A stretch of DNA of 64,000 nt from Candidatus Nomurabacteria bacterium (GTDB lineage Bacteria > Patescibacteriota > Dojkabacteria > SC72 > JAHDCA01), in NCBI GenBank assembly GCA_020632395.1, contig JACKFQ010000002.1, positions 172,971-236,970 on the forward strand, read 5' to 3'. The position numbers and the translations under genes were made by a program. Shown here one piece after another: positions 1-27,649 of the stretch. The notes beneath the pieces were generated by a model. It did not search any database. It worked only from the letters and a program-made list of their open reading frames with translations, and had not been told where the DNA came from. The stretch's first letter is position 1; each line of letters opens with the position of its first letter.

Positions 1-495
1 TGTTGGTCTGTCAGTGTTGATCTTGCCATATATAGGAGAGGGAACAGCTATAGAAGATGGTGTTCGAGCAGTATGTACATCTACAGTGCGTGAATACACG
101 TTAAATGGTCCCCAGGAGAGGTTTACCTGATATTGATGATCGTCAATCAAATTAGAAAGTGTGACGGTTTTAACATGATTCCCCTGTGAAAAAAGATCTG
201 ACAACCAAGGGATATTTCCTTGCAGATCATTTGTGTCTGCCCAATCTATCTCATATGATGTGCGATCAAGACCCACTACACTTACCGAAATTGGGTGAGG
301 TAAGCTCTGTGTAAATAGCAATGTTACCGAAGAATCCGTTGTATTTGTGATATAAACAGCATCTATACTCACACGTCTTTGGATAGCTGTAATACATAAC
401 AGACAGAGTAACAAAAACCCAATCACGACTACAACGAGCTGTAAGACTGTTCGAATTCTTAGCTTTTCCATTGATATCTGATAAGAAGTATTCAT
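1..495 (-). CDS. Giant surface protein paralog, N-terminal part (truncated by window edge): TM anchor plus FN3-like domain
   Basis: Open frame on the minus strand from ATG at 495..493 to position 1 with no stop. Translation MNTSYQISMEKLRIRTVLQLVVVVIGFLLLCLLCITAIQ has a hydrophobic anchor, then VYITNTTDSSVTLLF.. and ..HQYQVNLSW. These resemble the FN3-like N-termini of the 755..3352 and 4246..7932 proteins (NVTDRSVTISWVTK / ITNVTSNSATVTWVTK). Not in the supplied ORF track because it is incomplete. Confidence 0.6.
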   Translation of the reverse strand, partial: MNTSYQISMEKLRIRTVLQLVVVVIGFLLLCLLCITAIQRRVSIDAVYITNTTDSSVTLLFTQSLPHPISVSVVGLDRTSYEIDWADTNDLQGNIPWLSDLFSQGNHVKTVTLSNLIDDHQYQVNLSWGPFNVYSRTVDVHTARTPSSIAVPSPIYGKINTDRPT

Positions 496-696
496 TTGGG
501 TGCATTATTTAAACTTGGAGATCGTACTGTCCCATTTATATCATATCAAAAGTAACCCGATGATGTGTAGAACAAAGATCCGCGGTTAATGTAAGCTATA
601 TTTATATGTCTTTCTAAATGGAGTACTTCAGATCCACATCTTTAGCTGATGAATATATGTGTTTGGGTGTTCAACTTATACCGTCCTAATAATAAA

Positions 697-723
697 CCCC
701 GGAAGCTTTGTAAACTTCCGGGG
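697..723 (-). terminator. Rho-independent terminator hairpin (CCCCGGAAG-N9-CTTCCGGGG) downstream of the 755..3352 gene
   Basis: Perfect 9-bp inverted repeat with a 9-nt loop, 30 bp past the stop at 755. It is followed on the minus strand by UUUAUUAUU. A T-rich run also flanks it on the plus strand, so it may act bidirectionally. Confidence 0.6.
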
Positions 724-754
724 TAATTGCTTTGTTGTACCTCAGACTCAAGAG

Positions 755-3352
755 CTACTTTCTTTCAGGTTCCCAATTCCCTTGACCCTGTAATACTCTT
801 ACAAAATATGCAGTCTGTTGATCAAGAGGAAAATCGAATCCAAAAGTCTCTGAGCCTGTTTTCTGGAAACCCTCATACCGACCCTTCTCGATTGGCCAAC
901 GGGTAACATTATCTGCGTTGAAGTCGATGGGTTCGTAAAGATTCACGGAGTCAATCATCGATTCCGCAGTATACGCTTTGGTGCCAGTCCCATAGAGCCC
1001 AACAAGATTCCAACCTGGTGTCAGGTATATCGGTGCTGAGTCACCCTCCGATTCATATATTACCTGTTTACCAGTTAGTTCTATGTCCAAATTGATCTTG
1101 GACTTAAGGATATATCCTTGACCTGGAACGATCTGGAAATCATTCACATTATATTGACCTCCATTCTCACCAACCACATTCCAAGTACTTCTGAACTTTG
1201 AGATCGAATAAAAGGCATTATCATACCTCTCATTTAGGCCTGCAAGTAATGTGGAGGCGGTATTCTCTCCAACCAATACCATCGGAAATGAAACGAAGTT
1301 CAACCCCGCCTTTAGCGAATATGTCACCACATCAGCAACTAGTTCGAGATTTAGCAACGAGGCATCTTCGGATAGAGTCGTCTCTCCTGGATCTAAAATG
1401 CCATTTAAATTATTATCAAGGAAGATGGAGTACGATTTCCCTTCTTCTGGTAATAATACTGTGTATGTAACCCCTTGGTACTGGAATTGATATTCACCGT
1501 TAATATATACGAAATACTGACCAGATTGTGGATCGTATAGAACGTTCTGACTACTTTCCGGGACTTGAGCTGATATCTGAAACTTTAAACTGGCAAAGAG
1601 CCTACTCAATTCGGATGCTGATGAATCAGCGGATTCAGGGGTAGCTGGAGCTGCATTAGGGTCTCTTGGGGATCCACAGTATGTATTACCATCTGTATTG
1701 TTATCACATTCAGTTCCTGTCTCACAATCCCACATCCATGGATCATCCGTGCTCATCCCATCGCAACTACTCGGTTTTGTGCATCTTTTTCCACCCCCAC
1801 ACGGCTTCACATTTGTAGAAGTCTCTTGTGGAGGTTTCCAACAGGCACCACTCGGATATCCAACAACTTCATCTCGACACCCAGTTGTACTGAGATCAAC
1901 GCACTCTCCTCCAGCCATACTTTTATAATTGACACAAGCTCCGAATGATCCCCAACAGTTTCTTCCACCACAATTCTGTGCATCATCAGGAAGTTCCTGG
2001 GGCGAGATCGAACCGTTATTGGGTGAATCAGGACATGTCGTTGAGCCTTCGCTCTTGTGAACAACGAAAGGATAATACCAAGAACCATTTGGATACTGCC
2101 CGCCAGGACAGTGACATGAATAAAAACCATCGTCTGTGCCAGCTTCACACCAAGCTCCCTTACCACAATCCACCTGAATTCCATTCTCGTAACAATCATT
2201 AGGTATCACAGGAGGAGGAGATCCACTATCATCATTTGGGAGATTTGATGTTTGGACATCAGGTTCATCGGTATTACTGGGATCAGCGGTACCGATACAA
2301 TATGAATCATCTATACGGAATCCCCCTTGTGCAATTGTGACACCATCTATACATAATAATCTTCTGTCGTCACTAAGATTATCACCATCTCCATCAAAAC
2401 ACTCTCCAAATAATGCGGGGCAACAAGGGTCACATGAGTCCTCAGCATATACCTGATCAGTCAACAGACTGGACATCCCATCGGTCGAGAGTGCTTCATA
2501 GTCAAACAATTCTGTAACATCATATAGCTGCATAAGATTCATAGGTGCATCTTGACCAGTTAGAACTGTCATTGGCATTAGTCTGCCATTCGGACCTGCC
2601 TCCACCCATACCTCCTCAGTCAGTGCTTCTGTTACCTCCCCTAAATACTCTCCATCAGATGAGAGTGCATTAGAGAGATCAAAATAGAATGTGCCATTGT
2701 TTGGATTTACCGCAGAAGAAAGTATCTGAGCATCTGTACCATCAGCATGCCTCAATATCAAATACACCACGCCTTCATCGGATAATTGACCATCTATCGC
2801 TACTACCTGACCGTATGCAGGATAAGGGGTAGCTAACGTCTCTCTTTGTGTAAATGTTGTCACAGCCGTCTTTCTGGTTATGGCATCCCTCACCCCCCTG
2901 AAGAACCATCCATTACCTACCATGATCGAATAACTTGTACTGGGGTCGAGATCTGTGACTGTAACATGATGAACATAATATCTACCTTTCTTCGTAACCT
3001 TGACCTCTGTTTCTATACTATCCACAGACAGTCCAGATCCATTATCAGTGTTAGTAGCTTTTTTACGATTCTTATTGGCCAAAGCAATTTCAGCAGCTGA
3101 GTGATCGCGATCATCATACCCTGGCACACCTCCCGTCTGTAGGAGTTTGATAGATGGTGCACTCTCAGATAGCAACAGTGCCACACCAGGGGTTTTAGCC
3201 TTGGTGACCCATGATATAGTGACAGATCTATCGGTCACATTGGATACTAAAACATTCTTCGGAGCACTTCCCCAAATGCAGTATGTTAGGATGCCAATGA
3301 TCAGAACAGATACAACGAAAGCTATAAAAGCGTATCTTTTTTGTTTGAACAT
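755..3352 (-). CDS. Giant TM-anchored surface protein (865 aa): FN3-like N-domain, Cys/Asp-rich core, conserved C-terminal module
   Basis: N-terminal hydrophobic anchor AFIAFVVSVLIIGILTYCIW. FN3-like VSNVTDRSVTISWVTK...YYVHHVTVTDLDPSTSYSIMVGNG. Cys- and Asp-rich centre (CDPCCPALFGECFDGDGD..., about 40 Cys). C-terminal about 250 aa are homologous to the C-termini of the 4246..7932, 19360..23331 and 23339..27649 proteins (PGWNLVG...W..P end). Confidence 0.8.
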   Translation of the reverse strand: MFKQKRYAFIAFVVSVLIIGILTYCIWGSAPKNVLVSNVTDRSVTISWVTKAKTPGVALLLSESAPSIKLLQTGGVPGYDDRDHSAAEIALANKNRKKATNTDNGSGLSVDSIETEVKVTKKGRYYVHHVTVTDLDPSTSYSIMVGNGWFFRGVRDAITRKTAVTTFTQRETLATPYPAYGQVVAIDGQLSDEGVVYLILRHADGTDAQILSSAVNPNNGTFYFDLSNALSSDGEYLGEVTEALTEEVWVEAGPNGRLMPMTVLTGQDAPMNLMQLYDVTELFDYEALSTDGMSSLLTDQVYAEDSCDPCCPALFGECFDGDGDNLSDDRRLLCIDGVTIAQGGFRIDDSYCIGTADPSNTDEPDVQTSNLPNDDSGSPPPVIPNDCYENGIQVDCGKGAWCEAGTDDGFYSCHCPGGQYPNGSWYYPFVVHKSEGSTTCPDSPNNGSISPQELPDDAQNCGGRNCWGSFGACVNYKSMAGGECVDLSTTGCRDEVVGYPSGACWKPPQETSTNVKPCGGGKRCTKPSSCDGMSTDDPWMWDCETGTECDNNTDGNTYCGSPRDPNAAPATPESADSSASELSRLFASLKFQISAQVPESSQNVLYDPQSGQYFVYINGEYQFQYQGVTYTVLLPEEGKSYSIFLDNNLNGILDPGETTLSEDASLLNLELVADVVTYSLKAGLNFVSFPMVLVGENTASTLLAGLNERYDNAFYSISKFRSTWNVVGENGGQYNVNDFQIVPGQGYILKSKINLDIELTGKQVIYESEGDSAPIYLTPGWNLVGLYGTGTKAYTAESMIDSVNLYEPIDFNADNVTRWPIEKGRYEGFQKTGSETFGFDFPLDQQTAYFVRVLQGQGNWEPERK

Positions 3353-3616
3353 TCTTTTGATATATCATACATTATGTACTATAAATGTACATTAAACGGA
3401 ACCAACATACAAGAAAGTACATATGTAGATCTTTTCCAGCCAATGATATTTCAGCAGTTAATTCATAGACTGCAATTCGATACTGATTAGAATACAGAAA
3501 GTAATTGTTTTCATGACCATTATTATTGAGATCTGCTGGCGAGCACTGAATGAGTAAATTGAGATAAAGGCTGTATCTTAATATTCATATAGTCATAGAA
3601 TATCTTTGATTTAACG

Positions 3617-4131
3617 CATGAGTAAAAATTTTTGTGTCCATGTTGATTGGATCACTAATAATTTTACCAGTCACATATTGGGGCTACTGTTTATGGGCAT
3701 AGATACCTAAGAACGTTCTTGTAACAAACATTACGGATAAATCAGTTACACTATCTTGGGTGACTAAGGTCAAAACCCCTGGGATAGGATACATTTTGAA
3801 ATCTAACACAAATGTTAAGATCTAAGGAACAAGCAAGGCTGTAAGATACGAGAGCGATTCTGATGATAAACAATCTATTTTAGAACCGAGTTGGAACTTG
3901 ATCAGTCTTTATGGAACTGGTACTGTCGACTATACAGCGGAGTCTATGATAAATTTTATCAATATATGTGACCCAATCGACTTCACCGCAGATAATGTAA
4001 CACGTTGGCCTACCGAAAAAGGTCGGTATGAAGGTTTTCAAAAAACTGGTTCTGAAACTTACGGATCCGACTTTCCTCTTGATCAACAAACTGAATATTC
4101 TGTAAAAGTATTGCAGGGTCAAAGAACTTAG
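3617..4131 (+). pseudogene. Collapsed, inverted remnant of a giant-surface-protein paralog (TM/FN3 start joined directly to the C-terminal module; in-frame stops)
   Basis: Plus-strand translation gives ..YCLWA*IPKNVLVTNITDKSVTLSWVTKVKTPGIGYILKSNTNVKI*GTSKAVRYESDSDDKQSILEPSWNLISLYGTGTVDYTAESMINF...VKVLQGQRT. This aligns residue for residue with the N-terminus (YCIWGSAPKNVLVSNVTDRSVTISWVTKAKTPG) and the C-terminal module (GYILKSKINLDIELTGKQVIYESEGDSAPIYLTPGWNLVGLYGTGTKAYTAESMIDS...) of the 755..3352 protein. About 700 codons are missing in between. There are TAG and TAA stops in frame and a frameshift near the TM region. Confidence 0.65.
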
Positions 4132-4179
4132 GAAACTGACAGAGAGTAGCCCTTGAGTCTGAGGTGCAAAAAGACAAGA

Positions 4180-4208
4180 ACCCCTGAAAATTTAGAACCT
4201 CAGGGGTT
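4180..4208. terminator. Bidirectional terminator hairpin (CCCCTGA-N12-TCAGGGG) between the convergent pseudogene and the 4246..7932 gene
   Basis: 7-bp perfect stem. It is followed by TTTTAT on the plus strand and by UUCUUGUCUUUUUG on the minus strand. It lies 38 bp past the stop of the 4246..7932 gene. Confidence 0.5.
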
Positions 4209-4245
4209 TTATGATCATCACATTATGATCTGAACATAAATGAAA

Positions 4246-7200
4246 TTATGGATCAGGAGTCCATGTACCTTGCCCTTGCAATACACGTACGAAGTATCCA
4301 CTACTCGCAATTATCGGAAAGTCAAATCCATATACTTGATATAGACCATTTTCATCCTGCTCTTTCTGTAATCCGTCATACCGACCTTTGTCAGAGGACC
4401 ACCGTGAGACATTATCTACCACGAAAGTATTTGAATTGAGTGAATCGATCCAGGATTCAGCGGTATACAATGTTTCAGAACCAGCGATACCGACAAGATT
4501 CCAGCCTGGAGAGAGGGAGATAGGAACAGAGTCGACAACCTGTAGACCTCGTAGACCAATTAGATAATCATGATTCGATTTTAGAAGGTAACCTCTTCCT
4601 GGAATCAACTGAAAATCTTCGGATCCATAGAGAGAGCCGTCTTCACGCATTCCGACGATGCTCCATGAGCCTGAATCAAAAGCTGCAAGTGAAAAAAAAC
4701 CCTTTGAAAAATTCGTATTGAGGTAAGAAATGAACTCAAATGCAGTTGTGTAATCTTCAGATATTCGATCCAAGTGAATTAGATTCAACCCAGAGGTTAT
4801 GTTCAAATATTCAAGCGAATATTTCTCCTCTAACCTTAGACTTACTCCTTCATCCTCTAGTAGAATATCACCCTCATCCAAAATGTTGTTCTCATTATTG
4901 TCAATGTATAGATCGTATTGCCTACCATTCTCGAGCTCAAAACAATAACCTACACCTGCAACGTCAGTACAGTATCGTCCCGAAGTAGAGATTGAATAAA
5001 GACCATTTGTAGGAGACAGGATGATCTCTTCCTGTGCGTTGACTGTGGTTACTAAATCTTGGAGCTTACTGAAATAAACCGATCTAGTTGGTGGCCCAAG
5101 AGTAGAATTTTGAGCGCTAGGTGTCCTAGTTTTCTCACACGAATATATTATTGATGAATTACAATAGTTGCGGTATACATAATCGTTCAAACTCTCCTTA
5201 CAATTTTCAGAAAGGGCTTCATAACTAAAATCTCCACGAGGACAATCACAGTAATCAGAGTCCGGATCCAAACGTATGTATTCTTGGCATGTTTTTTCAC
5301 CTGAGACATCGCAAAACTCCCCGACGTTGGAAGCATAACAAGTTGCGAATGTTTGGGTAGGACAAATTTGATCTATGTGGATCTCCCAACTGTCAGTATA
5401 CGTCGAATTCCCACCCATACCATTTGATGTTCTTAAACCACCTTCACACCAACAATCATCCTCTGTACATTTATCTCCTGGGAAAATAATCGGCCTACCC
5501 TTCACAAGATGGGTACCAATAGTATCCTTACAAAATTTGCCTATAGGTACCTCGATCGGAGCCCCATTCCAAAATCCTTCCCCTACGTCCTTACATCGGC
5601 AACCAGAATCAACGAGACATCGATCATCCAAACCAATAAGTGATACCCACGTACCTCCAATACACCATAGAACTCCATCATTATTGCTAATCTGTTGACC
5701 CTCACTATATGGACAATCGTCACCAGCTACTATTGGGGTGCCGACACATTTTCCGGGAGTGGTAGAAAGATCACATATTTTAGACGAACATTCCTTATAT
5801 GAAAAGCAATCGCTGTCTAGGGTTCTCAAACAAATTCCTGGATTACTAGAACTACTTCCAACACAAGTTAGGTTATAATCACAGTCTCCAAAACATATTG
5901 CGTAAAGACCTTTTGATTGATTTGGTGATTGATTTGGTGATTGATTTGGTGATTGATTTGGTGATTGATTTGGTGATTGATTTGGTGATTGATTTGGTGA
6001 TTGATTTGGTGATTGATTTGGTGATTGATTTGGTGATTGATTTGGTGATTGATTTGGTGGAGATGTGCTGTCTAGAACTGTTGCACTGGTACATTCACAT
6101 TTTTCGTCCTTAGTACAGAATTTTATATCATCGTTATCTTCGCACAATAACTGACACCCAAGATAATAACATCTATCATCCTGATTGGTTATATCCTCAA
6201 TTGTACAAGTATTATCAGAACCAGTTGGTGAAGGATACTCATTATCTGAACATAAAGGGATGTTTACTGGCTTACAAACGGCATTTGAATTAGGATTCGC
6301 TTTATAACAATAATATCCTGATGGACAATCGTTAGTATTAATATCGCATTCTACTTGATCCGAACCTACCGGTGGAGTCTGACATACTCCAATGTCATAA
6401 CCACATTTACCAACACCAAAACAATCAATACACATTAGATCCCCATACCCGTCGCAACCACCTTCCAATGGGAACTGCTTTCCAATCACACATAGATCAC
6501 CTATGCCCTTATTCTCATTCGTACCATAGTCAGAATTTTTGCATTGATCCGGTGCATCTACCCAACCGCCTCCAATACATCTCCTCCATTCACAGCCACT
6601 GGCGTTTGGGTCATCCCAACACCTTAACTCGCTTGGTCCACACACACCATTAGCACATTGTGCTCCTGGTAGGGTACCGCCAGTATCAGGTTCTTGTGGT
6701 GTAGTTCCGCCGCCACCCCCACCACCACATGTGCTTGCAGCACCTGAAGCACAAGCCTCACTTCGCCACCTTTGTTCACCATCACATCCATTTGTTGCAC
6801 AATAACCATTAAACGAGTCCATATCCGATTGTGATGCTTCGTAACACTTTGATTCACAAGTGACAGTCCAACCAGCAAAGCTTTCAAATGAAACAAACGA
6901 CATGAATGATTGTAAGAGATTTTCTTCAATTACCCTGTACTCTTCGATCAGCACAAAATCCCTCGCTGGAGCATCTTCATATGGGGGTACCTCAGTTCTG
7001 TAGAGTTCGCCGTCTTGACTTCGTACCTCTCCAACTCTCTTGAAATCAAAGATCTCCTCTTCGGAATAGGTTTCTAAAAGGTACCCACCATCAGGTACAC
7101 GTAAAGAGGTGATGTCCAGATACCATGATCCATTTTTGGCTAAGGGAGTTGACACATAACTACTAGTTCGCTCACCTGAGCTATTTTCTAGATAGTAGTA

Positions 7201-7932
7201 GAAAATTCCATCCTCCAAGGGTACGGGTGTAGGAATATCATCAGTGCGATCAAATACTTTCCCATAGATCGGGTCAGGAGTGATTAATTCATCCAACTGG
7301 GGTAATGTTGTGAATGCTGTTTGTTCCTCATTTGATAATAATCTAAAAGTTGTTCCATCACCAATATAAATTGTGTAATTCGTCTCAGAATCCAAACCCC
7401 TAAATGTCACATGGTGAGTATAATATGCACCTAGCTCTGTAACTTCGACATCTTGTTCGATCTGCTTTCCAGAGATCTCTCCATCAGAAGCAATTTCTGC
7501 ATTTGCCTTAGCTAAGTCCAATTCAGCTTTAGTGTAATCCCTATCATCATACCCCTTTATAGAGCCATCGATATTCCCTACAATCAGTTCCTTTAAACCT
7601 TCAGCTTCTGGTACAGCTAATCCTACTGCTTTTTGTGGATTTTTTGTCACCCAAGTCACAGTTGCGGAATTCGAGGTTACATTTGTTATCCTCACCCCTA
7701 TAGGATCAGCAATAAACCTGGAGGTGAAATAGTATGCTCCTGATCCAATTAGAAGCACGATCAAGGCCACCAAAAGCATGATCAGATTGACACGTTTATC
7801 ACCGAAGACTCTTTTGAAAAGGTTCTTTGGCTTTTTTCCTTGAATTGTGGATGTGTCAGAAGTGTTCATAGCTCCCAATGTTCCAACTGCTGTATCCGTT
7901 GTAGCCTTTGTACTATGTGATTGTGACTGCAT
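4246..7932 (-). CDS. Giant TM-anchored surface protein paralog (1228 aa) with (SPNQ)12 repeat linker and conserved C-terminal module
   Basis: Cytoplasmic N-tail of about 50 aa, then TM LIMLLVALIVLLIGSGAYYF. FN3-like RITNVTSNSATVTWVTK...YYTHHVTFRGLDSETNYTIYIGDG. Gly run GGGGGGG. Cys-rich core. (SPNQ)x12. C-terminus ...FVRVLQGQGTWTPDP matches the 755..3352 C-terminus (...FVRVLQGQGNWEPERK). Confidence 0.85.
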   Translation of the reverse strand: MQSQSHSTKATTDTAVGTLGAMNTSDTSTIQGKKPKNLFKRVFGDKRVNLIMLLVALIVLLIGSGAYYFTSRFIADPIGVRITNVTSNSATVTWVTKNPQKAVGLAVPEAEGLKELIVGNIDGSIKGYDDRDYTKAELDLAKANAEIASDGEISGKQIEQDVEVTELGAYYTHHVTFRGLDSETNYTIYIGDGTTFRLLSNEEQTAFTTLPQLDELITPDPIYGKVFDRTDDIPTPVPLEDGIFYYYLENSSGERTSSYVSTPLAKNGSWYLDITSLRVPDGGYLLETYSEEEIFDFKRVGEVRSQDGELYRTEVPPYEDAPARDFVLIEEYRVIEENLLQSFMSFVSFESFAGWTVTCESKCYEASQSDMDSFNGYCATNGCDGEQRWRSEACASGAASTCGGGGGGGTTPQEPDTGGTLPGAQCANGVCGPSELRCWDDPNASGCEWRRCIGGGWVDAPDQCKNSDYGTNENKGIGDLCVIGKQFPLEGGCDGYGDLMCIDCFGVGKCGYDIGVCQTPPVGSDQVECDINTNDCPSGYYCYKANPNSNAVCKPVNIPLCSDNEYPSPTGSDNTCTIEDITNQDDRCYYLGCQLLCEDNDDIKFCTKDEKCECTSATVLDSTSPPNQSPNQSPNQSPNQSPNQSPNQSPNQSPNQSPNQSPNQSPNQSPNQSKGLYAICFGDCDYNLTCVGSSSSNPGICLRTLDSDCFSYKECSSKICDLSTTPGKCVGTPIVAGDDCPYSEGQQISNNDGVLWCIGGTWVSLIGLDDRCLVDSGCRCKDVGEGFWNGAPIEVPIGKFCKDTIGTHLVKGRPIIFPGDKCTEDDCWCEGGLRTSNGMGGNSTYTDSWEIHIDQICPTQTFATCYASNVGEFCDVSGEKTCQEYIRLDPDSDYCDCPRGDFSYEALSENCKESLNDYVYRNYCNSSIIYSCEKTRTPSAQNSTLGPPTRSVYFSKLQDLVTTVNAQEEIILSPTNGLYSISTSGRYCTDVAGVGYCFELENGRQYDLYIDNNENNILDEGDILLEDEGVSLRLEEKYSLEYLNITSGLNLIHLDRISEDYTTAFEFISYLNTNFSKGFFSLAAFDSGSWSIVGMREDGSLYGSEDFQLIPGRGYLLKSNHDYLIGLRGLQVVDSVPISLSPGWNLVGIAGSETLYTAESWIDSLNSNTFVVDNVSRWSSDKGRYDGLQKEQDENGLYQVYGFDFPIIASSGYFVRVLQGQGTWTPDP
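5915..6058. repeat. Perfect tandem repeat: 12 copies of the 12-bp unit GATTGATTTGGT inside the CDS, encoding (SPNQ)12 on the minus strand
   Basis: Direct reading of the sequence shows 144 bp with no mismatch between copies. The unit length is a multiple of 3, so copy-number change keeps the frame. The track ORFs 5879..6094 and 5898..6113 are frame artefacts of this repeat. Confidence 0.95.
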
Positions 7933-19359: not shown

Positions 19360-22300
19360 TCAGCCATCAGGAGTCCAATAGCCGACACCCTCATCTACAA
19401 ATAGAAAGATTCCTATCTTGTCACTTATCGTGTAGTCTACTCCAAACACACCATCTCCTTTAGTAACATATGTAATGAACCTCCCTCGTGCCGGATCCCA
19501 GATCGCAACTTTACTAGCTTTGACACCTGGCAGTTGATTCACCTCTGCCAAGAGCTCGCTTGCAGATATCTGGGCTGATCCACCTTTCAATGCAATCAAA
19601 TTCCAGCCCTTTACCATATATTGCTGTACAGGGGATGTATAACTTTTCCCTTTGAGTCTCAATTTTACAGCCTCCTGGACTACTAGATACATCGCATCTC
19701 CCGGTGACAAGGTAAAGTCTTCACCATAATTCTGTGTCCCACGCCTATTCGCAGAAAACCATCCATTAGTAGCATTTCCCGAGTATGTAGCAACTGCTGT
19801 TGCATAACCCCCTTGATCTATGATCTCCTGAAGTATTTCTTGGGCCTCGTCAAAATCTTCTGTATAAAAAGGGATCGAGAGTATCGAGATACCCGGTTTT
19901 AGATCGATCTCTATGACATCCCCAACTTTTGTTAATTTCAGATCCATAATAGATGGGGCAGGGTATTCATCAGTGTCAAAGATCCCATCGCCATCTCTGT
20001 CTTGGAATACCGGTACATTTATCTGATCATCTGAATAATTATAGACATACTGTTCGCTTGTATCGAAAACAGATGATTCGATCAAAAATTCCCCACGACT
20101 TGGAAGTTTCAATGATGCAGCACCAAGAACCATATTCATAGATTCACCACCAGAAAGCAATATACTCTGCACACCACCAACAGATGGATCCCAGCAAGCT
20201 TCCCCATTAGGTCCTGACACATTATCAGAAGTGCATTGCCCACCTCCTCCACCTACACCTCCTCCACCTACTGCACCCCCATCAGTCTCGGCATTCCCCA
20301 CTGAGATCGAATCATTCACAAATAGCTCTGCAGAATCCCAGTAAGCATCAGAATTTCTGTACGGATATTCATTATTAGCAGCTAAATATACCGTGATAAG
20401 AGAGGAATCTGAGCTTGCAGAGATCTCAAAGTCAGTGAACTGACTACTGTCACTAGGTTGTACATTTGGTAGATCTTTCCAATCAGACCAGATGACAGAT
20501 GTAGAGTCAGGATCAATACCGCCTGTAGGGTCGATGCCTATCCTTCCTACAAATTTGTTTACTACCTGACACACACAATCACCTGACTCATTACAGCTGG
20601 CTTCTCCAAAATTCTCACAATGCTTACCATCAGACCAGGATGAAGCTCTTGCTTTAAATATAAGATCATTTGATCCACCTTCCCCAAGATCTATCTGCTG
20701 ATATACACCTGCATGATGAGTTCCGTAAGTTGTAAACCATTGTAAGGAGGAGGCTCCACCTCCTGAGGGGATCCTATTTGCAAATCCTGTCGATTGTTTA
20801 TACTCGGGTCGTCTGCATATCGCAGGATCTGACGAACACGAATACACCCCACACATCCCTCCCTGACATCCGTTCTGATACCATGCATGCCAATATTGTG
20901 GAACTTTGAGCTCAGCAGCACCATCAGATACGAAACTTCCTTCAAAACCTCCATTTAATAATCCACCTAAAGCTGTTGCATGATCTTGATGACCTACTCC
21001 TACACAAATATTCCCTAGGCATGGGTCATTTCCATTGTATGTCCCTCCGTAGGGAGATGACGAACTACTCGTATTTCCGTTTACCCCAGTTATACCAACA
21101 CTTGATGTATTGCCTGTGCTGGTAGCACTTCCTGTATATCCCTTTTCAAAAGTTACACTCACTGAGCCTTCCTGAGGAACCTGAAAATTTCCTGCTCCAC
21201 AATTTGATAACAGTCTTGAGATCAAGCCGGAATTAGACCATAACTCTTGATGATATGAAAATGCACTGTCGGGGTTAGAGCCAAGACTATTGAAAAGCAT
21301 TATCACAAAGACATTTTCCATCGAATCGAGAGCTCCTATAGTGTTTGCGAGAACATCCCAATTCATTGAAGTATCGATCTTTCCCAGCTCTGTAACAATT
21401 ATCGTATCCCTCAGCCCTTTTGATTGTAGATATGATGTAAATGCCTGAATATCAGATACAACATTACCCTCGCCCCTTTGATATAAGTAGTCATTTACTG
21501 CCCATGCAAATATATCTCCTGATACTGCTGAGAACGAGCTGTTTTCCAACATCTTATCCACATAGGTCTGTGCAGAATAGATAGGATGAGGATTTGGATC
21601 ATCACACCCATCATTGCAACCCGGCCACTGTCCATCGCCATTACTATATAGATCAAGATTTGGAGAGATCACTTTAATTCCAATATCCTCAGGATCTGTT
21701 GATAAAACGCCAGCTCCTTTCAGAACAGAGATCAGATCAGCAACAAACTGAGCCTCATCGTTAGGATCACGGTATTCGGCAACATTTGGTTCATTATGAC
21801 CTCCATGAATAAAAAGTCCATTTTGAGGTAATTGCCCAGAGGCTTTTAGTGAATTATAGACCTCTAATACGGAGTTACCATAAGCATTCCCATTATTGAT
21901 ATTGCAATTTCCTTTGTAGCAAAGCCTTAAGAGTAGGTTCATCCCGACATTCTTCCCATTTATCACACTTTGAGCATAATCATTCATCGCACCAAGATCA
22001 GTTATCAATGCCTCTCCCCATCTCATACGAGAACCTACAGCTTGTTGCATTTTATCTACAGGGACTTGGTACTGGATGGCGAAATTCTCCCCCATCTTTG
22101 AACATAAGTTCGCTGTTTGAGTCATCGGAGGGATAGTTGTTCCTGCTGGACTTGAGTCCCCTGCCGATCCAGTTGTTCCTGTAGAACCTGTTGTACCAGT
22201 CACGACTGGGGCTGGAGGTCCTTTTGGTATGTTCACGGTCACAGATGGGTCCTTTTCTGTCGTATTTATACACTCGGTTGTACCGTCAAAAGCTTTGATC

Positions 22301-23331
22301 AAATATGTCTTCCCGATCTCCAAACCAGATGATCCAATTTCTACATACCCACCATTTCGGATCTCAAGATCTGCATTAGTTGTAGGATCTTGAACATATG
22401 AGCTTGAGGTTTCATCAAAAAGTTTGAGGGTTACAGTAGCGGGTCTATGAAATTGGGTGTAGCTAGTATGTTTGATCAGCCCTAATCTAAATCTGGATTC
22501 CCCCTCCGGACAATCTCTGGTATCCAATGAGGATGTCCAATCGATCTTATCATTACACTGCACACGTATCCCTCCTCGATCAGTGCTATTTATACAGCTA
22601 TTTGCTGCATTTACTTGATGAAGAAGGGCAATATCTGATCCATCGAGTGTAGAGGGAAAGATTATGTCTGCTACAGGTTGATTATAGAAGGATGCGGTCA
22701 TATAGGTTCGTTTTTCACCGAGAGGCGTTACAACCTCAACTTCTTGAATGAAGTTCTCATCTACTCCATTGGTATATGCGATACTATAACTACCATTATC
22801 TCCTGTAGTGGAGGCAATTATCGGAGCAACATCATCTTCAGATCGTATCAATACCAGAGAATCTTTTATACCAAGGTCGTGATCATCTACAACTCGCCCA
22901 TACACTCTAGAAGGGGTTGGGATATCTTCGCTGACTGATGGCAGAGAGAATTGTTGCGATATCTCAGGCTTATTGAATATGACACCTTTTAGTGTATCAG
23001 ACCACGATAAAGAATGCTCTTGTATCGCATGATCGAGTTTAACTTCGTAATATTCATAATAAACAGTGTCAACATGATCGATCAAGCATGGAAGATTCCC
23101 ATTGTCACAATCAGATAGATGCTCGTCGTCACTTTTGATCACAGACGATACAAAAGGCAGATGAAAAGAAGGCTCTTTAAGGATCACTATTGTTATGGCG
23201 TCATCAGAGATATTGGCTAAAACATGTTCCTTGTATGAGGATCTTTCAATGAAAATGAACAGCAATAGTAATGTCGCCGGAACAAGTACTGCTAGAAACA
23301 GCATTATTGTTATCCTTACGGTATTTTTCAT
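19360..23331 (-). CDS. Giant secreted/TM-anchored protein (1323 aa) with a transthyretin-like domain, a GH5-like (clan GH-A) glycoside-hydrolase signature, a Cys-rich region and the shared C-terminal module
   Basis: N-terminal anchor ITIMLFLAVLVPATLLLLFIFI. CarboxypepD_reg-like VYGRVVDDHDLGIKDSLVLIRSEDD..TTGDNGSYSI. Gly/Thr linker TGTTGSTGTTGSAG. GH-A hallmarks: ..LLLRLCY.. (beta2 Arg), HGGHNEPNVAEY (acid/base NEP), and about 140 aa later IIVTELGK (nucleophile TE.G). Cys-rich region CLGNICVGVG..CQGGMCGVYSCSSDPAICRRPEY. Poly-Gly run. C-terminal KGWNLIALKG...VDEGVGYWTPDG is homologous to the 755..3352 family C-termini. Confidence 0.8.
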   Translation of the reverse strand: MKNTVRITIMLFLAVLVPATLLLLFIFIERSSYKEHVLANISDDAITIVILKEPSFHLPFVSSVIKSDDEHLSDCDNGNLPCLIDHVDTVYYEYYEVKLDHAIQEHSLSWSDTLKGVIFNKPEISQQFSLPSVSEDIPTPSRVYGRVVDDHDLGIKDSLVLIRSEDDVAPIIASTTGDNGSYSIAYTNGVDENFIQEVEVVTPLGEKRTYMTASFYNQPVADIIFPSTLDGSDIALLHQVNAANSCINSTDRGGIRVQCNDKIDWTSSLDTRDCPEGESRFRLGLIKHTSYTQFHRPATVTLKLFDETSSSYVQDPTTNADLEIRNGGYVEIGSSGLEIGKTYLIKAFDGTTECINTTEKDPSVTVNIPKGPPAPVVTGTTGSTGTTGSAGDSSPAGTTIPPMTQTANLCSKMGENFAIQYQVPVDKMQQAVGSRMRWGEALITDLGAMNDYAQSVINGKNVGMNLLLRLCYKGNCNINNGNAYGNSVLEVYNSLKASGQLPQNGLFIHGGHNEPNVAEYRDPNDEAQFVADLISVLKGAGVLSTDPEDIGIKVISPNLDLYSNGDGQWPGCNDGCDDPNPHPIYSAQTYVDKMLENSSFSAVSGDIFAWAVNDYLYQRGEGNVVSDIQAFTSYLQSKGLRDTIIVTELGKIDTSMNWDVLANTIGALDSMENVFVIMLFNSLGSNPDSAFSYHQELWSNSGLISRLLSNCGAGNFQVPQEGSVSVTFEKGYTGSATSTGNTSSVGITGVNGNTSSSSSPYGGTYNGNDPCLGNICVGVGHQDHATALGGLLNGGFEGSFVSDGAAELKVPQYWHAWYQNGCQGGMCGVYSCSSDPAICRRPEYKQSTGFANRIPSGGGASSLQWFTTYGTHHAGVYQQIDLGEGGSNDLIFKARASSWSDGKHCENFGEASCNESGDCVCQVVNKFVGRIGIDPTGGIDPDSTSVIWSDWKDLPNVQPSDSSQFTDFEISASSDSSLITVYLAANNEYPYRNSDAYWDSAELFVNDSISVGNAETDGGAVGGGGVGGGGGQCTSDNVSGPNGEACWDPSVGGVQSILLSGGESMNMVLGAASLKLPSRGEFLIESSVFDTSEQYVYNYSDDQINVPVFQDRDGDGIFDTDEYPAPSIMDLKLTKVGDVIEIDLKPGISILSIPFYTEDFDEAQEILQEIIDQGGYATAVATYSGNATNGWFSANRRGTQNYGEDFTLSPGDAMYLVVQEAVKLRLKGKSYTSPVQQYMVKGWNLIALKGGSAQISASELLAEVNQLPGVKASKVAIWDPARGRFITYVTKGDGVFGVDYTISDKIGIFLFVDEGVGYWTPDG

Positions 23332-23338
23332 TTACCAG

Positions 23339-26300
23339 TTACTTCTCTGAGGGTATCCAATACCCTACACCATTATCAACAAGTAAAAATATCCCCTGTA
23401 CATCAGTTATCCCGAAATCAGAACCATACTCCTCACGACCTTCAAAGATGAACTGTCTGTAACTACCTTTGGAACTATCCCATACCGCTATAGCAGATGC
23501 CTGTACTCCTGGGAGATCGGTTACTTCCTCTAATACTCTACCAGCATCATAGCTTGCAGATGTACCCTTGATTGCTATTAGATTCCAACCCGCCTTTACA
23601 TACTGCTGAACTGGTTCTGCGTAAGATGTACCCCGTAATCTAAGGTCTACAGCTCTTTTGATCACTATGAACATAGCGTCTCCAGGTCTGAAGTCAAAAT
23701 CCTCACCATAACTCTGGTTTCCGACCATACTATACATATTCCAGCCAGATGTTTTTCCACTATTTCGATAAACAGCAATAGAAGTTGCTAAACCACCTTG
23801 ATCTTTGATGGCAGAAAAGATATCACTTACACTCGTAAGATCTTCATTGTAAAAAGGAATTGAGACGAGGTTGATCCCTTCTGACAGATCTAGTTGTATG
23901 GCATCTCCGATCTGTCGAATGCTCACCATACTAACATCAGGAGCAAACGGTTCTCCTTCATCATATTCACCATCCTGATCCAGATCCTGAAATACAGGTA
24001 GTTCTAGCGGTGTATTTGCAAAATTCGCACGATAGATCGGTTCACTCATATATCCCTCTGCATAGATCTCATACTCACCTCGAGTTGGCAAAGTGATCAT
24101 TGGAGGGGTCGTTGCTCCTAATATATTTTGAGATATTATATTTGAATTCGTAGGAAGGAGATCTTTGCTACTTTGTAATCGGGGATCTTCAAAATCACCA
24201 TTCCAATTTGGTACACATTTTGTTACACAACAGTGTGCTCCCAACTTCCCGTCACCAGGAGGAATAACCCCACAACCTGCAGGGCATTGTGCAGATGTGC
24301 GCCCCCAGGGGCATGAGTTTGCCGGAGGGAGAGGTTCATCTGTATTGAGCCATTTTTTGGTTGATTCAATATATCCATCAGGACATAAAGGTTGACAACT
24401 TTGGGATTCAACCCAACAGGCGTCTATACCTGTTATATCGGAAACGCTTTGATCACACGCTATACCAGAGGGGGTTGTACCACCCCCACCTGTTGTATCA
24501 TATTCTAATTGCTGTTCACCTGAATTCGTGGCATCACCAACAGACAAAATATCATTTACGAACATTTCTACGCCATCCCAGTATGAGTCAGAGTTTCTGT
24601 ATGGATATTCATTATTTGAGGCGAGGAAAACTGTCACCCTATCATTTGAGGAGGTGGTTTCGATCTCAAATTGTACAAAATTCGCTCCATCTTGAGGTCC
24701 AACATTGGGTAATGACTTCCACTCTGTCCACTCAACGGTCGATGCGGTAGGATCGATACCCCCAGTTGGATCGATCCCTACCCGTCCAACAAATTTATTA
24801 ATTATCTCACAGAAACAATCCCCTTCAACAACACAACTAGATTGACCATATCCCTCACATCTTTTGTCATCCGACCAGGAAGACGCACTGGCAATAACTT
24901 TAATATCATTTGTTCCTCCTAGACCAAGTTCAACTTGTTGGTAAACTCCAGCATGATGTGTCCCGTAAGTAGTAAAGTATTGTAGCGAGGCGCTTCCTGC
25001 TAATCTACGATTTACGACATCAGCACCACTAGATTGCTTATATTCAGGTCTTCGGCAGAAGGCCGGCTCATTAGAACAAGCATAGATCCCACACTGCCCC
25101 CCCTGGCAACCGTTCTGATACCACACATGCCAGTACTTAGGCACATTTAATTCAGCTGCTCCATCGCTAACGAACTCACCTTCCATGTTTCCATTCAATA
25201 ATCCCCCTACCGCTACAGCATAATTATTATAATCTTTTCCTACGCATATCCCTCCTAGACAAGGGTCAGACCCATTATATGACGACCCGTAGATGCCGGG
25301 AGATCCACTACTACTCCGTGCGGAATTATCCGGTGAGCTATTAAATGGTACCGAACTTGAGGTTGTAGGGGGTGAGGAACTACCACTTGCACTACTGCCA
25401 TTACCATTACTCGAACTCCCAGAGGTAGTAGTCACAGGTACTTCTCCTTCCTGAGGGACTTGATATGATCCGATAGTACAATTTGAGAAAAGACTCTTGA
25501 GAAGGTTACTATCATCCCATAGGGGTTTGTGGTATTCAAAAGCAGGATCTCGATTAGTTCCTAAAGCATTGAACAGCAGGAATCCTTCGACATATTCTTT
25601 TGATTCTAATGTTGCCAAGGTATTTGCTAATACAGACCAGTCATGAATAGGTTGTTGTCCAGGAGGTGCGTAGTTACCAGTTTCTGTAATGAATACACGA
25701 CCCGGTAGATCTCGCGGTTGTAAGTATGCCGAGTAAAAGCCATCCACATCAGCATTAACAGCATCAGGACCCTTTTGATAAATATAATCATTTACTGCCC
25801 ATGCATACAACTTGTTCGCAGCTTCGTAGAAACCTTCAACCTTCAGCATCTCATCGATATATGACTGTGCGGTGTATATAGGATGTGGATTTGGGTCATC
25901 ACACCCGTCAGAACAACCTTGCCACTGTCCATTCTGATAAATGTACAGGTCAAGATTAGGACTCAAGAGCTTGATTGTAGTCTCACCGAGATCTTGTCCG
26001 AGCAATCCGGCAGAATCTACAGCATTCACAACACCTATCAGGAAGTTTGCCTCAGAGGTTGGATCTCGATATTCTGCATTGTTCGGCTCATTGTGCCCGG
26101 CATGGGCAAACAACCCATCCTGAGGAAGAGTACCGCTTTGCATCAACTCATTGAATACACCTACTAAGGCTTGACCATATGCAACCCCATCATTCACATT
26201 ACAATTATTTTTATAACATAAGCGAAGTATCACATTCATACCTAAATTATTTGCATCTGACACAGAAGCCTTATAATCATTGATCCCACCAAGATCCGTG

Positions 26301-27649
26301 ATCAATGCCTCTCCCCACCTCATTCCCAGTGAAACACCTTTCTGTATATCCTCTGCCGGGATCCTGTACTGTACTGCAAAATTATTTCCTACTTTCTTAC
26401 AAAGATTCATCTCGTCTGTGACAGGTGGTATCGTACCCGCACCACTTGTTCCATTACCTGTATTACCCGTACTGCCTGTATTGCCTGTATTACCCGTACT
26501 GCCTGTATTGGAACCAGAAGGAGGACCTTGGCGATTTTCTGGGGACCTATACAAAACAGTTGGGTCACCATCATCTGTATTTTTACACTCAGTCGTACCT
26601 TCGTACGCTTTGATAATATAAGTTGCACCATCCTTCAGATCGACCTCAACACCATCTACATAACCACCGTTTGAAACGGTCAAAACATTTCCATCAGAAT
26701 CTTTCACTAATTCACCTGTAGACTTCTCTACAAGTTGTAATTTCACATCCTCAGGCTTGTGGAACTGAGTAACTGATGTTGACTTGATCATTCCAAGTCG
26801 AAACCTACCATCTCCTTTGGGACAAGTTGTAGTGTCTAATTGAGATAACCAATCCACTTTCTCATTACACTGTGCACGAATACCTCCCATTGTGGTAGAT
26901 TTTATACAAGAATTTGCAGCATATGATTGGAAAGAAAGTTCAGACAATATGTTCTCCTCTGAAGGCTCTTTCACTTGGACTATAAGATCTGCCACGGGTT
27001 TGTTAAAATCACTACTCGTCCGTAGAGTTACCTCTTCTCCTCCCATTGTCACAACAGAAACCTCTTGGAGATAGTACTGTTCCGAATGGGGAAGGATAAA
27101 ACTGTATGTTCCATCCTCAGCTGTTTTGGTCACATATATGGTATCTAATTCGGGAGCATCGATAAACACTAAAGCGTCCCCGATCAGATTATCATACTGA
27201 TCTAGAACCCTTCCGTAAGCTCTTTCAAATGTCGGAACTACATTTTCGACATTTGATATAAGACCGATCGAGGTAGTTTCTGCACCAAATGATTGTTTCA
27301 AAGTGTCTACCCATTCAAGAGTATTTGTTTGAAGGTCAATCATATTTGCCACCTTGAAATACCAATACTTATCATTTTTCAGTACAGTCGAATAACATGG
27401 ATCAACAGTATCTTTACCGCACTCATTGATCTGCACATCATTTAGCAACAACTTAGGTTCTAAAGGATATGCACCTCTTGAAGGATCTAACTCTGCAATT
27501 ACTGAAATGGTCGAACCCTCCTGTTGATATGATCTTAGAGCCACCAGAGTGCTTTTCTGACCGTTAAAGAGAATTACAAGAAATATCAGAAATGAGAACA
27601 GAATTGTTACTGCTGAAATGAGCAGTATCTTTTTACGATTTTTATCCAT
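23339..27649 (-). CDS. Giant secreted/TM-anchored protein paralog (1436 aa) with GH5-like signature and shared C-terminal module
   Basis: Colinear with the 19360..23331 protein. Anchor ILLISAVTILFSFLIFLVILF. AYGRVLDQYDNLIGDALVFIDAPE. Linker GSNTGSTGNTGNTGSTGNTGNG. HAGHNEPNNAEY and VFITETGN. Cys-rich CLGGICVGKD..CQGGQCGIYACSNEPAFCRRPEY. C-terminal AGWNLIAIKG...VDNGVGYWIPSEK. Separated from its upstream paralog by 7 bp. Confidence 0.8.
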   Translation of the reverse strand: MDKNRKKILLISAVTILFSFLIFLVILFNGQKSTLVALRSYQQEGSTISVIAELDPSRGAYPLEPKLLLNDVQINECGKDTVDPCYSTVLKNDKYWYFKVANMIDLQTNTLEWVDTLKQSFGAETTSIGLISNVENVVPTFERAYGRVLDQYDNLIGDALVFIDAPELDTIYVTKTAEDGTYSFILPHSEQYYLQEVSVVTMGGEEVTLRTSSDFNKPVADLIVQVKEPSEENILSELSFQSYAANSCIKSTTMGGIRAQCNEKVDWLSQLDTTTCPKGDGRFRLGMIKSTSVTQFHKPEDVKLQLVEKSTGELVKDSDGNVLTVSNGGYVDGVEVDLKDGATYIIKAYEGTTECKNTDDGDPTVLYRSPENRQGPPSGSNTGSTGNTGNTGSTGNTGNGTSGAGTIPPVTDEMNLCKKVGNNFAVQYRIPAEDIQKGVSLGMRWGEALITDLGGINDYKASVSDANNLGMNVILRLCYKNNCNVNDGVAYGQALVGVFNELMQSGTLPQDGLFAHAGHNEPNNAEYRDPTSEANFLIGVVNAVDSAGLLGQDLGETTIKLLSPNLDLYIYQNGQWQGCSDGCDDPNPHPIYTAQSYIDEMLKVEGFYEAANKLYAWAVNDYIYQKGPDAVNADVDGFYSAYLQPRDLPGRVFITETGNYAPPGQQPIHDWSVLANTLATLESKEYVEGFLLFNALGTNRDPAFEYHKPLWDDSNLLKSLFSNCTIGSYQVPQEGEVPVTTTSGSSSNGNGSSASGSSSPPTTSSSVPFNSSPDNSARSSSGSPGIYGSSYNGSDPCLGGICVGKDYNNYAVAVGGLLNGNMEGEFVSDGAAELNVPKYWHVWYQNGCQGGQCGIYACSNEPAFCRRPEYKQSSGADVVNRRLAGSASLQYFTTYGTHHAGVYQQVELGLGGTNDIKVIASASSWSDDKRCEGYGQSSCVVEGDCFCEIINKFVGRVGIDPTGGIDPTASTVEWTEWKSLPNVGPQDGANFVQFEIETTSSNDRVTVFLASNNEYPYRNSDSYWDGVEMFVNDILSVGDATNSGEQQLEYDTTGGGGTTPSGIACDQSVSDITGIDACWVESQSCQPLCPDGYIESTKKWLNTDEPLPPANSCPWGRTSAQCPAGCGVIPPGDGKLGAHCCVTKCVPNWNGDFEDPRLQSSKDLLPTNSNIISQNILGATTPPMITLPTRGEYEIYAEGYMSEPIYRANFANTPLELPVFQDLDQDGEYDEGEPFAPDVSMVSIRQIGDAIQLDLSEGINLVSIPFYNEDLTSVSDIFSAIKDQGGLATSIAVYRNSGKTSGWNMYSMVGNQSYGEDFDFRPGDAMFIVIKRAVDLRLRGTSYAEPVQQYVKAGWNLIAIKGTSASYDAGRVLEEVTDLPGVQASAIAVWDSSKGSYRQFIFEGREEYGSDFGITDVQGIFLLVDNGVGYWIPSEK

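Follow-up and report, generated by a model that had tools for sequence, protein, structure and literature searches.

Paralogous predicted surface proteins with conserved terminal modules and a variable cysteine-rich core in a Dojkabacteria genome

The surface-protein systems most readily compared with the family described here come from quite different organisms. The Cwp proteins of Clostridioides difficile carry three CWB2 repeats and the S-layer-associated proteins of Bacillus carry three SLH repeats, and the variant-specific surface proteins of Giardia, which are eukaryotic, have a conserved C-terminal transmembrane anchor and CXXC motifs and undergo expression switching among about 200 genes. 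The present work concerns an array of three paralogous genes, A, B and C, at the start of a 64,000-nucleotide stretch of DNA, referred to throughout as the window, from a Candidatus Nomurabacteria bacterium that is placed in the Dojkabacteria of the Patescibacteriota (assembly GCA_020632395.1, contig JACKFQ010000002.1, positions 172,971 to 236,970); relatives at at least 90% identity and the syntenic complete genome CP129478.1 are likewise labelled Dojkabacteria. The encoded proteins hold a highly variable, cysteine-rich core between two conserved modules. Genomes of Patescibacteria are rich in surface proteins, with predicted adhesins being essential in a cultured Saccharibacterium, and the cultured members of the phylum are epibionts (PMC11665869).

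All three genes lie on the minus strand. Gene B (755-3352; 865 amino acids; named 'fibronectin type III domain-containing protein' by NCBI, MCB9789436.1) and gene C (4246-7932; 1228 amino acids; defined by its open reading frame (ORF), Pfam and BLASTP) are complete long ORFs with the boundaries given in an initial annotation made from the DNA letters. Gene A is cut by the start of the window, such that its first 165 codons (1-495), encoding the N-terminal membrane anchor and a degenerate fibronectin type III (FN3)-like start, are all that lies within it. The full-length gene, together with the genes beyond the window start, was read from contig JACKFP010000001.1 (GCA_020632435.1; locus L032), which encodes an exact match to protein B. 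There A is complete (L032:12858-16196) and specifies 1112 amino acids in which the anchor and the degenerate FN3-like start are followed by a core with 36 Cys and by the C-terminal module, bearing out its earlier assignment to the family on the strength of the fragment. The in-window part of A offers the anchor and a weak Pfam fn3 match only (E 0.005), with no significant BLASTP similarity to C, and the full-length protein matches the family profiles built here with an E of 7.7e-14 for the N-module hidden Markov model (HMM) and 1.9e-54 for that of the C-module. Proteins B and C align with each other by BLASTP at both ends, over residues 31-281 and 77-336 in the N-terminal module (33% identity, E 2e-32), a match that includes the motif NVT..SWVTK...YY.HHVT..LD..T.Y.I..G.G, and over residues 571-863 and 937-1227 in the C-terminal module (39% identity, E 8e-56); their middles give no BLASTP alignment. 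Membership of the family is defined here by matches to both the N-module and the C-module profile with a Cys-rich segment between them, an arrangement found in A, B and C alike. The proposal that these are paralogs sharing an anchor, an FN3-like domain, a Cys-rich core and a C-terminal module is therefore one on which BLASTP and profile alignments agree, with both similarities upheld at the profile level, and the description of the products as giant proteins was overstated for sizes of 865-1228 amino acids.

The family, one of Dojkabacteria-type Patescibacteria, is large and lacks annotation, and it becomes visible only by exhaustive profile searching. Word-indexed homologue searches returned only 10 and 7 matches, and a C-module profile (alignment A1) searched exhaustively against 1.84 billion cluster representatives matched 2321 of them at E<=1e-3 and 407 at E<=1e-30. 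Among the matches listed and long enough to judge, the match always reaches the C-terminus, in proteins of around 850-1450 amino acids. The N-terminus of 124 retrieved full-length members is the B/C-type N-module in 111 cases and, in 7, that of a second type represented in the window by two further genes, D and E. The statistics on cores, topology and pairwise similarity given below relate to 108 representatives that have both the N and the C modules.

It is in the core that these proteins part company. In an all-versus-all BLAST of the representatives the N-module aligns in 99.6% of pairs and the C-module in 99.8%, compared with 2.0% of pairs in which the cores align over at least half of their length, so that the great difference in core sequence reported for the window genes is a property of the family at large. 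Where the C-modules are 60-70% identical the core aligns in 24% of pairs only, at around 28% identity, and the core of B finds no BLAST match among 155 family members. In B the core spans residues 288-586 (1595-2491) with 24 Cys, and in C, as defined by composition and alignment, residues 341-955 (5068-6912) with 56 Cys. Cysteine makes up 6.4% of the core in A, 7.9% in B and 9.0% in C, whereas in 29 further ORFs of the window it stands at 0.52%, and outside the core there are only 1-2 Cys per protein. The core had been called rich in both Cys and Asp: the first description holds, and the second does so weakly, with Asp mildly raised to 11.2% in B, 8.6% in C and 7.3% in A over a baseline of 6.7%. 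Across the representatives the cores range in length from 248 to 927 amino acids with a median of 7.9% Cys, and the number of Cys is even in 94 of the 108, as it is in A (36), B (24) and C (56). Even counts are what would be expected if every Cys were paired in a disulfide, and the core is thus probably fully disulfide-bonded. Within the core of A, at residues ~345-500, about four copies of a unit of ~45 amino acids can be made out by eye, each with a Cys pair and a W-x-x-W-x-C element (for instance IWSEWRC and YWGVWEC); the units recall thrombospondin type 1 repeats, to which they give no profile match. A separate stretch of the same core ('SHKNGYNAIDI ... GAHLDF'), which looks like the C-terminal domain of a conserved downstream protein, was considered as an M23 peptidase domain and rejected, there being no Pfam match and a BLASTP E of 1.1.

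The N-terminal part is constant by comparison. A, B and C each have one N-terminal hydrophobic segment, and a single such segment ahead of the N-module is found in 106/108 representatives, with any other hydrophobic segment in only 2. In C a cytoplasmic tail of ~47 residues precedes the membrane anchor, which begins at about residue 48 and is followed by the N-module. This module covers residues 26-287 of B (2492-3277), where an FN3-like domain is followed by a further conserved segment, and residues 72-340 of C (6913-7719). Against Pfam PF16656 (Pur_ac_phosph_N, cut-off 30) B scores above the threshold at 31.3 bits, C falls below it at 26.8 bits and A has no match, and against PF00041 (fn3, cut-off 25) all three fall below, with 21.5 bits for B, 17.5 for A (13.4 for the full-length protein) and 12.2 for C. 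As in the proteins of these two Pfam families, the first domain of the N-module matches the FN3-like beta-sandwich models; unlike the PF16656 proteins, no phosphatase domain follows, and the FN3-like domain accounts for ~100 of 865-1228 residues. The C-termini of A, B and C lie within the soluble C-module (GNWEPERK, GTWTPDP and GVYEPE, respectively) and are not those of sortase substrates. From these features the family is predicted to be extracellular, with single-pass proteins anchored at the N-terminus.

Variation between closely related strains falls in the same place. Ratios of nonsynonymous to synonymous polymorphism (pN/pS) were obtained over a 22.6-kb locus by comparing L032 with a 44-kb contig of a related strain (L037). 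The value for A, in which 18 codons differ synonymously and 18 nonsynonymously, is 0.32, as compared with 0.04-0.14 for its neighbours; none of the changed codons lies in the C-module, which is invariant between the strains. B differs between the same two contigs by two nonsynonymous changes and 0 synonymous ones. Comparison of four variants of B gives 6 nonsynonymous nucleotide differences, spread over 5 codons, and 0 synonymous ones; the polymorphic residues (360, 398, 410, 479 and 483) occur in mosaic combinations and all lie in the core, although it makes up 35% of the protein (chance 0.005). None of them is a Cys, and K398D needs two nucleotide changes. The strain-level variability expected in the initial annotation is thus present as amino-acid polymorphism confined to the core of B, and the presence or absence of whole genes between strains is not: the arrangement of C, a decayed inverted gene copy described below, B and A is the same in all five contigs examined from other samples, at 99.6-99.7% identity. 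The core of C also contains a perfect 12-nucleotide tandem repeat of 12.2 units (5914-6059, minus strand) that encodes (SPNQ)n; three assemblies, from strains that are nearly identical, carry 11, 10 and 2 units. Synonymous divergence reaches 2-4% in the DUF4153 gene, A and a gene for a protein with two FN3-like modules (FN3x2); C and B show almost none, and part of PNPase, RsmE and a gene for a 107-residue protein (p107) show none at all. This patchiness of synonymous diversity along the locus indicates that recombination is active and calls for caution, and the mosaic divergence suggests recent recombination or a local sweep over the segment holding C, the decayed copy and B. A deeper dN/dS comparison between species was precluded, since identity between orthologues is 45-55% where the proteins are best conserved, within a single module, the core is unalignable and synonymous sites are saturated.

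What, then, is the advantage of keeping the two ends of a protein constant and changing almost everything between them? The model that we favour, and to which we give an even chance, is that the core is a variable ligand-binding surface carried on a constant scaffold and recognising a host-cell or other external surface. The membrane anchor and the conserved FN3-like stalk would hold the proteins at the cell surface; the disulfide-bonded core, swapped or rewritten between relatives, would bind the host-cell or other external surface; and the constant C-terminal module would give the several passengers a common function, for example the binding of a conserved component of the envelope or of a partner. 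Diversity in the core would arise from ordinary mutation under relaxed or positive selection and from replacement of the core between the conserved flanks, with further contributions from the gain, loss and decay of genes and from the slippage-prone repeat, no programmed switch being called for. The recognition role of the core is, above all other points in this account, something that we infer, and it is drawn from sequence features.

Several considerations weigh against a recognition role. Searches with the A, B and C cores revealed no resemblance to described adhesin or lectin domains, and the role assigned to the C-module is, with no structural match to guide it, a guess. With the anchor at the N-terminus, the membrane-distal end would be formed by the conserved C-terminal module and not by the variable core, which is the reverse of the arrangement in many adhesins. 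The pN/pS of A, though elevated, is below 1; recombination could mimic selection, given the mosaic pattern of synonymous diversity; and the strain sample is small, with five B variants and one full-length comparison. The differences in SPNQ unit number may be partly an assembly artefact in which the short-read value is collapsed. Finally, the episymbiotic life-style of the organism is assumed from its phylum, and to our knowledge no host has been reported for Dojkabacteria.

The C-terminal module, of about 280 amino acids in A, B and C, occupies residues 587-865 of B (758-1594), where a beta-sandwich prefix with a DNNLNGILD loop is followed by two homologous domains of ~95 amino acids, and residues 956-1228 of C (4249-5067), as delimited by BLASTP and the family alignment. 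An AlphaFold2 model of the module from B (pLDDT 82.7, pTM 0.78) has a small beta-sandwich and then two similar alpha/beta units, and alignment of repeat 1 with repeat 2 across the family by hhalign is significant (Prob 97.6, E 4e-12), from which it follows that the module contains an internal duplication. The loop in the prefix, D-x-[DN]-x-[DN]-G-x-x-D, is present in all five window paralogs (A-E) and in 119/160 family members. DxDxDG is a calcium-binding pattern, and the prefix loop is a candidate Ca-binding site. The calcium that had been proposed to stabilise the core would, on this basis, belong elsewhere, as the loop of this type sits in the conserved C-terminal module.

Searches for relatives of the module gave no relevant match in Pfam (E up to 10) or NCBIfam, nothing in the Protein Data Bank (PDB) by sequence profile, and a best E of 0.07 by fold against PDB and BFVD with Foldseek. 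The repeat unit does recur outside the bacterial family: it stands at the C-terminus of large, Cys-rich proteins from Woese-, Nanohalo-, Aenigm-, Pace- and Nanoarchaeota (DPANN), all annotated as 'hypothetical', and of a 'hypothetical' cyclophilin-domain protein on one Desulfobulbia contig, following extracellular domains of other types. The hhalign comparison of the bacterial unit with the DPANN/Desulfobulbia unit gives Prob 97.7 and E 1.4e-12. In many of the DPANN proteins and on the Desulfobulbia contig (loci L027-L030, proteins P0176-P0250) the unit forms a C-terminal tandem pair; the archaeal carriers inspected (L028-L030) are large and Cys-rich, and two of them (L028 and L029) have many 'DPxPHP' repeats. 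Somewhat speculatively, and we regard it as rather unlikely, the tandem 'GWNL' pair would be an undescribed extracellular docking or display module of Dojkabacteria, within the Candidate Phyla Radiation (CPR), and of several DPANN phyla, two radiations of ultra-small symbionts that are unrelated to each other, with the cores acting as exchangeable cassettes that set the host or surface to which a strain attaches.

A constant module of this kind also brings in the main rival to surface recognition, namely that the family consists of envelope or coat proteins resembling those associated with S-layers, in which the C-module would bind the cell's own wall polymer or S-layer, the Cys-rich core would form a tough outer coat and the variability of the core would reflect escape from phages or grazers rather than recognition of a host. 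One tandem-repeat module is carried on five paralogs with different passengers, enzymes among them, which mirrors the SLH and CWB2 families; the genes are clustered at one conserved locus, where a probable sortase substrate adjoins them and a sortase gene is not far away; and the C-module is unchanged between strains. Set against this, the C-module has no profile or fold match to SLH, CWB2, LysM, GW/SH3b or choline-binding modules, nor a Pfam or NCBIfam match to any other wall-binding module, and the proteins already have a membrane anchor at the N-terminus. On balance we judge a coat or envelope role to be unlikely, albeit one that deserves to be taken seriously.

The passengers in question include those of D and E, which the initial annotation did not cover and which end in the same type of C-terminal module as A, B and C after a different N-terminus. 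Gene D (19360-23331, minus strand) encodes 1323 amino acids that comprise a glycoside hydrolase (GH) clan-A TIM barrel, a sandwich like that of carbohydrate-binding modules and the C-terminal module, and gene E (23339-27649, minus strand; 1436 amino acids, with the C-terminal module) is its tandem paralog at 48% identity. Both have an N-terminal anchor, with a CarboxypepD_reg-like sandwich seen in E only at 18.2 bits, below the cut-off of 32.3. In the AlphaFold2 model of the centre of D/E, residues ~15-315 alternate between beta and alpha elements in a (beta/alpha)8 barrel with a pLDDT of ~80-97. Foldseek matches of the barrel to the PDB range in E from 2e-8 to 1e-5, with GH30 at E 2e-8, GH128 at E 3e-7 (TMt 0.73) and also GH26 and GH5. 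The motif GHNEPN is present, 7 homologues all keep the TE of the TELG motif, and by model and motif D/E fit clan GH-A, which is characterised by a (beta/alpha)8 barrel with an acid/base Glu in NEP and a nucleophile Glu after strand 7. There is no match to a Pfam GH family, and on the evidence of the model D and E may represent an unassigned glycoside hydrolase family.

That a GH clan-A barrel with conserved NEP and TELG motifs should sit in the same frame of conserved modules lends some weight to the idea of A, B and C having cores that are themselves divergent catalytic or toxic domains, with the proteins acting as secreted or surface-displayed enzymes or effectors on the envelopes of prey or hosts, and lytic action on hosts has been proposed for Patescibacteria (PMC11665869). 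The cores of A, B and C match no enzyme family at E<=1, the M23-like motif in A is unsupported, and a catalytic domain would not be unalignable in 98% of family pairs, all of which makes this explanation improbable.

Next to E lies a sortase gene (28948-29757, plus strand; TIGR01076 at 62.9 bits, cut-off 39.35), and another genome (L025) likewise has genes of the D/E type beside a sortase gene. Just one protein was recognised as a clear sortase-type substrate, namely the FN3x2 protein of 640 amino acids encoded just beyond the window start (L032:16825-18747), which consists of two copies of the family N-module, scores 60.5 bits against Pur_ac_phosph_N and ends in TPKTA, a transmembrane (TM) segment and KKR (TPKTG in CP129478.1).

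The array contains, between B and C, the decayed inverted copy that had been proposed there, and its features settle what kind of element it is. At 3618-4146 on the plus strand, as traced by tblastn, ORFs and a DNA repeat, lies an inverted, internally deleted pseudogene of a B-like gene. By tblastn the plus strand at 3631-4146 matches residues 9-80 of B at 45% identity and residues 743-865 at 66%, the 9-80 part being joined near 'PG' to the ~740-865 part in the same frame. There is a frameshift in the anchor region, an in-frame stop and an internal deletion of ~660 codons, leaving an ORF of 77 amino acids at 3898-4131. The DNA repeat is an inverted one, termed I1 (668-1019 and 3885-4236), with 74% nucleotide identity, and takes in a terminator-like hairpin: one with a 13-bp stem lies downstream of B (696-724, minus strand) and its homologue, inherited with the decayed copy, is now just downstream of C (4179-4208, minus strand). 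The 91 mismatches in I1 fall on all four bases with no adenine-specific pattern, and there is no long exact repeat. In the coding part mismatches at codon positions 3, 1 and 2 number 40, 11 and 13, a bias which means that the pseudogene was a working gene for most of its history, and their spread over all four bases means that it is not the template of a retroelement. The inverted copy is a decayed fourth paralog and not a cassette.

These observations bear directly upon the notion of programmed antigenic variation, under which the inverted copy would serve as a silent cassette or template, with inversion, gene conversion or a diversity-generating retroelement (DGR) as the means by which B or C is rewritten. 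The notion draws on the position of a partial inverted copy between two paralogs, on the in-frame perfect variable-number tandem repeat in C and on the fact that CPR and DPANN genomes are rich in DGRs. Against it, the copy is only 74% identical, with no long exact repeat and with mismatches over all bases, and it has a frameshift, a stop and a large deletion; it is identical in the related strain (L037), with gene order unchanged among related strains. A role as DGR template is ruled out by the mismatch spectrum and the 74% identity, and one as an inversion cassette by the same identity and the unchanged orientation in strains. No reverse transcriptase match was found among the window ORFs scanned, a scan that did not cover every ORF, and no recombinase match near the array among those scanned, several window ORFs lying outside the scan. 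Invertible or cassette-based phase variation, as in slpA/slpB or the hsdS shufflons, is generally marked by near-identical inverted repeats around an invertible segment, a site-specific recombinase and the presence of both orientations; here the other inverted repeats at the locus are of 55 nucleotides or less and 77-85% complementary, and a single orientation is seen in the five related contigs. Programmed variation is accordingly very improbable indeed, and the label of antigenically variable proteins finds no support in mechanism.

The history of the array is also older than it first appears. Among 155 retrieved family proteins 100 score best with the C-terminus of B and 47 with that of C, and A has no close relative. 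B-type and C-type proteins are therefore distinct subfamilies with their own relatives elsewhere, and A, B and C are old lineages and not the outcome of recent serial duplication; of the serial duplication with rapid divergence that had been suggested for the array, it is the divergence that stands. In many related metagenome-assembled genomes the locus has the order PNPase, RsmB, (RsmE), (DUF4153), one to three family genes and the FN3x2 protein, with family genes numbering 1, 2 or, in the genome studied, 3, so that copy number does vary among related genomes. The expectation that the array would continue past position 1 was right as far as the completion of A is concerned. Extension into L032 shows that the array ends after A, downstream of which come genes of other kinds, in the order of a membrane protein of 107 amino acids, the FN3x2 protein, a Cys-containing protein of 478 amino acids, a polytopic protein of 525 amino acids and a protein of ~1034 amino acids.

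A comparable set follows the array in several genomes (L007:12965-18613; L032:18758-22598; L031:17115-21176), made up of secreted, Cys-containing proteins of ~455-508 amino acids, polytopic proteins of ~476-525 and large proteins of ~940-1040. In L007 the large protein has one TM segment, and its C-terminal domain weakly resembles Peptidase_M23 (E 0.038). The set has no Pfam assignment and may be a surface apparatus. Elsewhere in the window are genes for a VirD4-like coupling protein (40928-43495), PrgI (VirB3-like; 57928-59472), a VirB4/TraG-like ATPase (60106-62526) and an M23 peptidase (62924-63730), which belong to the monoderm-type type IV secretion system known from Patescibacteria and lie 33-55 kb from the array. 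A tie between the two was considered and set aside on account of this distance and of the downstream proteins having no Pfam match to type IV secretion components, and no link is claimed. The plus strand at 31195-34602 carries an ORF of 1135 amino acids that has a signal-like segment at its N-terminus, a TM helix in its centre and long Ser/Thr/Pro-rich low-complexity tails that include a (TSPS)n run, for which there is no Pfam or NCBIfam match.

The family is a concrete candidate for a part in the way Patescibacteria find and hold their hosts. The grounds are a conserved locus, a constant scaffold and a core that is different in nearly every relative, together with polymorphism in B that lies only in the core and a C-terminal domain that lacks a Pfam, NCBIfam or PDB entry and is nevertheless present in DPANN. 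Were the 'GWNL' pair a docking module with exchangeable cores, the family would determine host range in an uncultured lineage and offer a way of tracing the hosts. Defining the C-terminal domain would annotate thousands of 'hypothetical' proteins, and the cores could be used as baits for partners. Even if these are only coat proteins, they make a clean case of modular surface-protein evolution in a reduced genome.

Comparison with described systems places the family on familiar ground. With the variant-specific proteins of Giardia and other Cys-rich surface proteins of parasites it shares anchoring and a variable, very Cys-rich region joined to a conserved terminal segment; it differs in having 1-3 genes, with no switching machinery found and no homology. 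The targets of DGRs in CPR and DPANN are, like the present proteins, hypervariable and extracellular in ultra-small episymbiont lineages. They differ in their variation, which is confined to a short C-terminal variable region as opposed to a core of 250-930 amino acids, and here there is no pair of template and variable repeats with adenine-specific changes and no reverse transcriptase match among the ORFs scanned. The predicted adhesins of cultured Saccharibacteria, which are indispensable for growth as epibionts, likewise belong to reduced genomes with many large membrane-anchored surface proteins for which host attachment is proposed, theirs being backed by genetic evidence where ours come from sequence, the likeness being one of biology at the level of the phylum (PMC11665869). 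Literature searches found no description of the family in Dojkabacteria or Patescibacteria, and neither it nor its C-terminal domain is described in the libraries and publications consulted; the general design is familiar. This is clearest for the Cwp and SLH families. They differ in that the module here has no CWB2 or SLH similarity in sequence or fold, is only putatively wall-binding, and consists of two repeats and a prefix at the C-terminus of proteins with an N-terminal membrane anchor. What is shared is the plan itself: many paralogs partly clustered at one locus, an exposed part that is highly variable between strains and species, and a constant tandem-repeat terminal module carried on very different passengers, hydrolases included.

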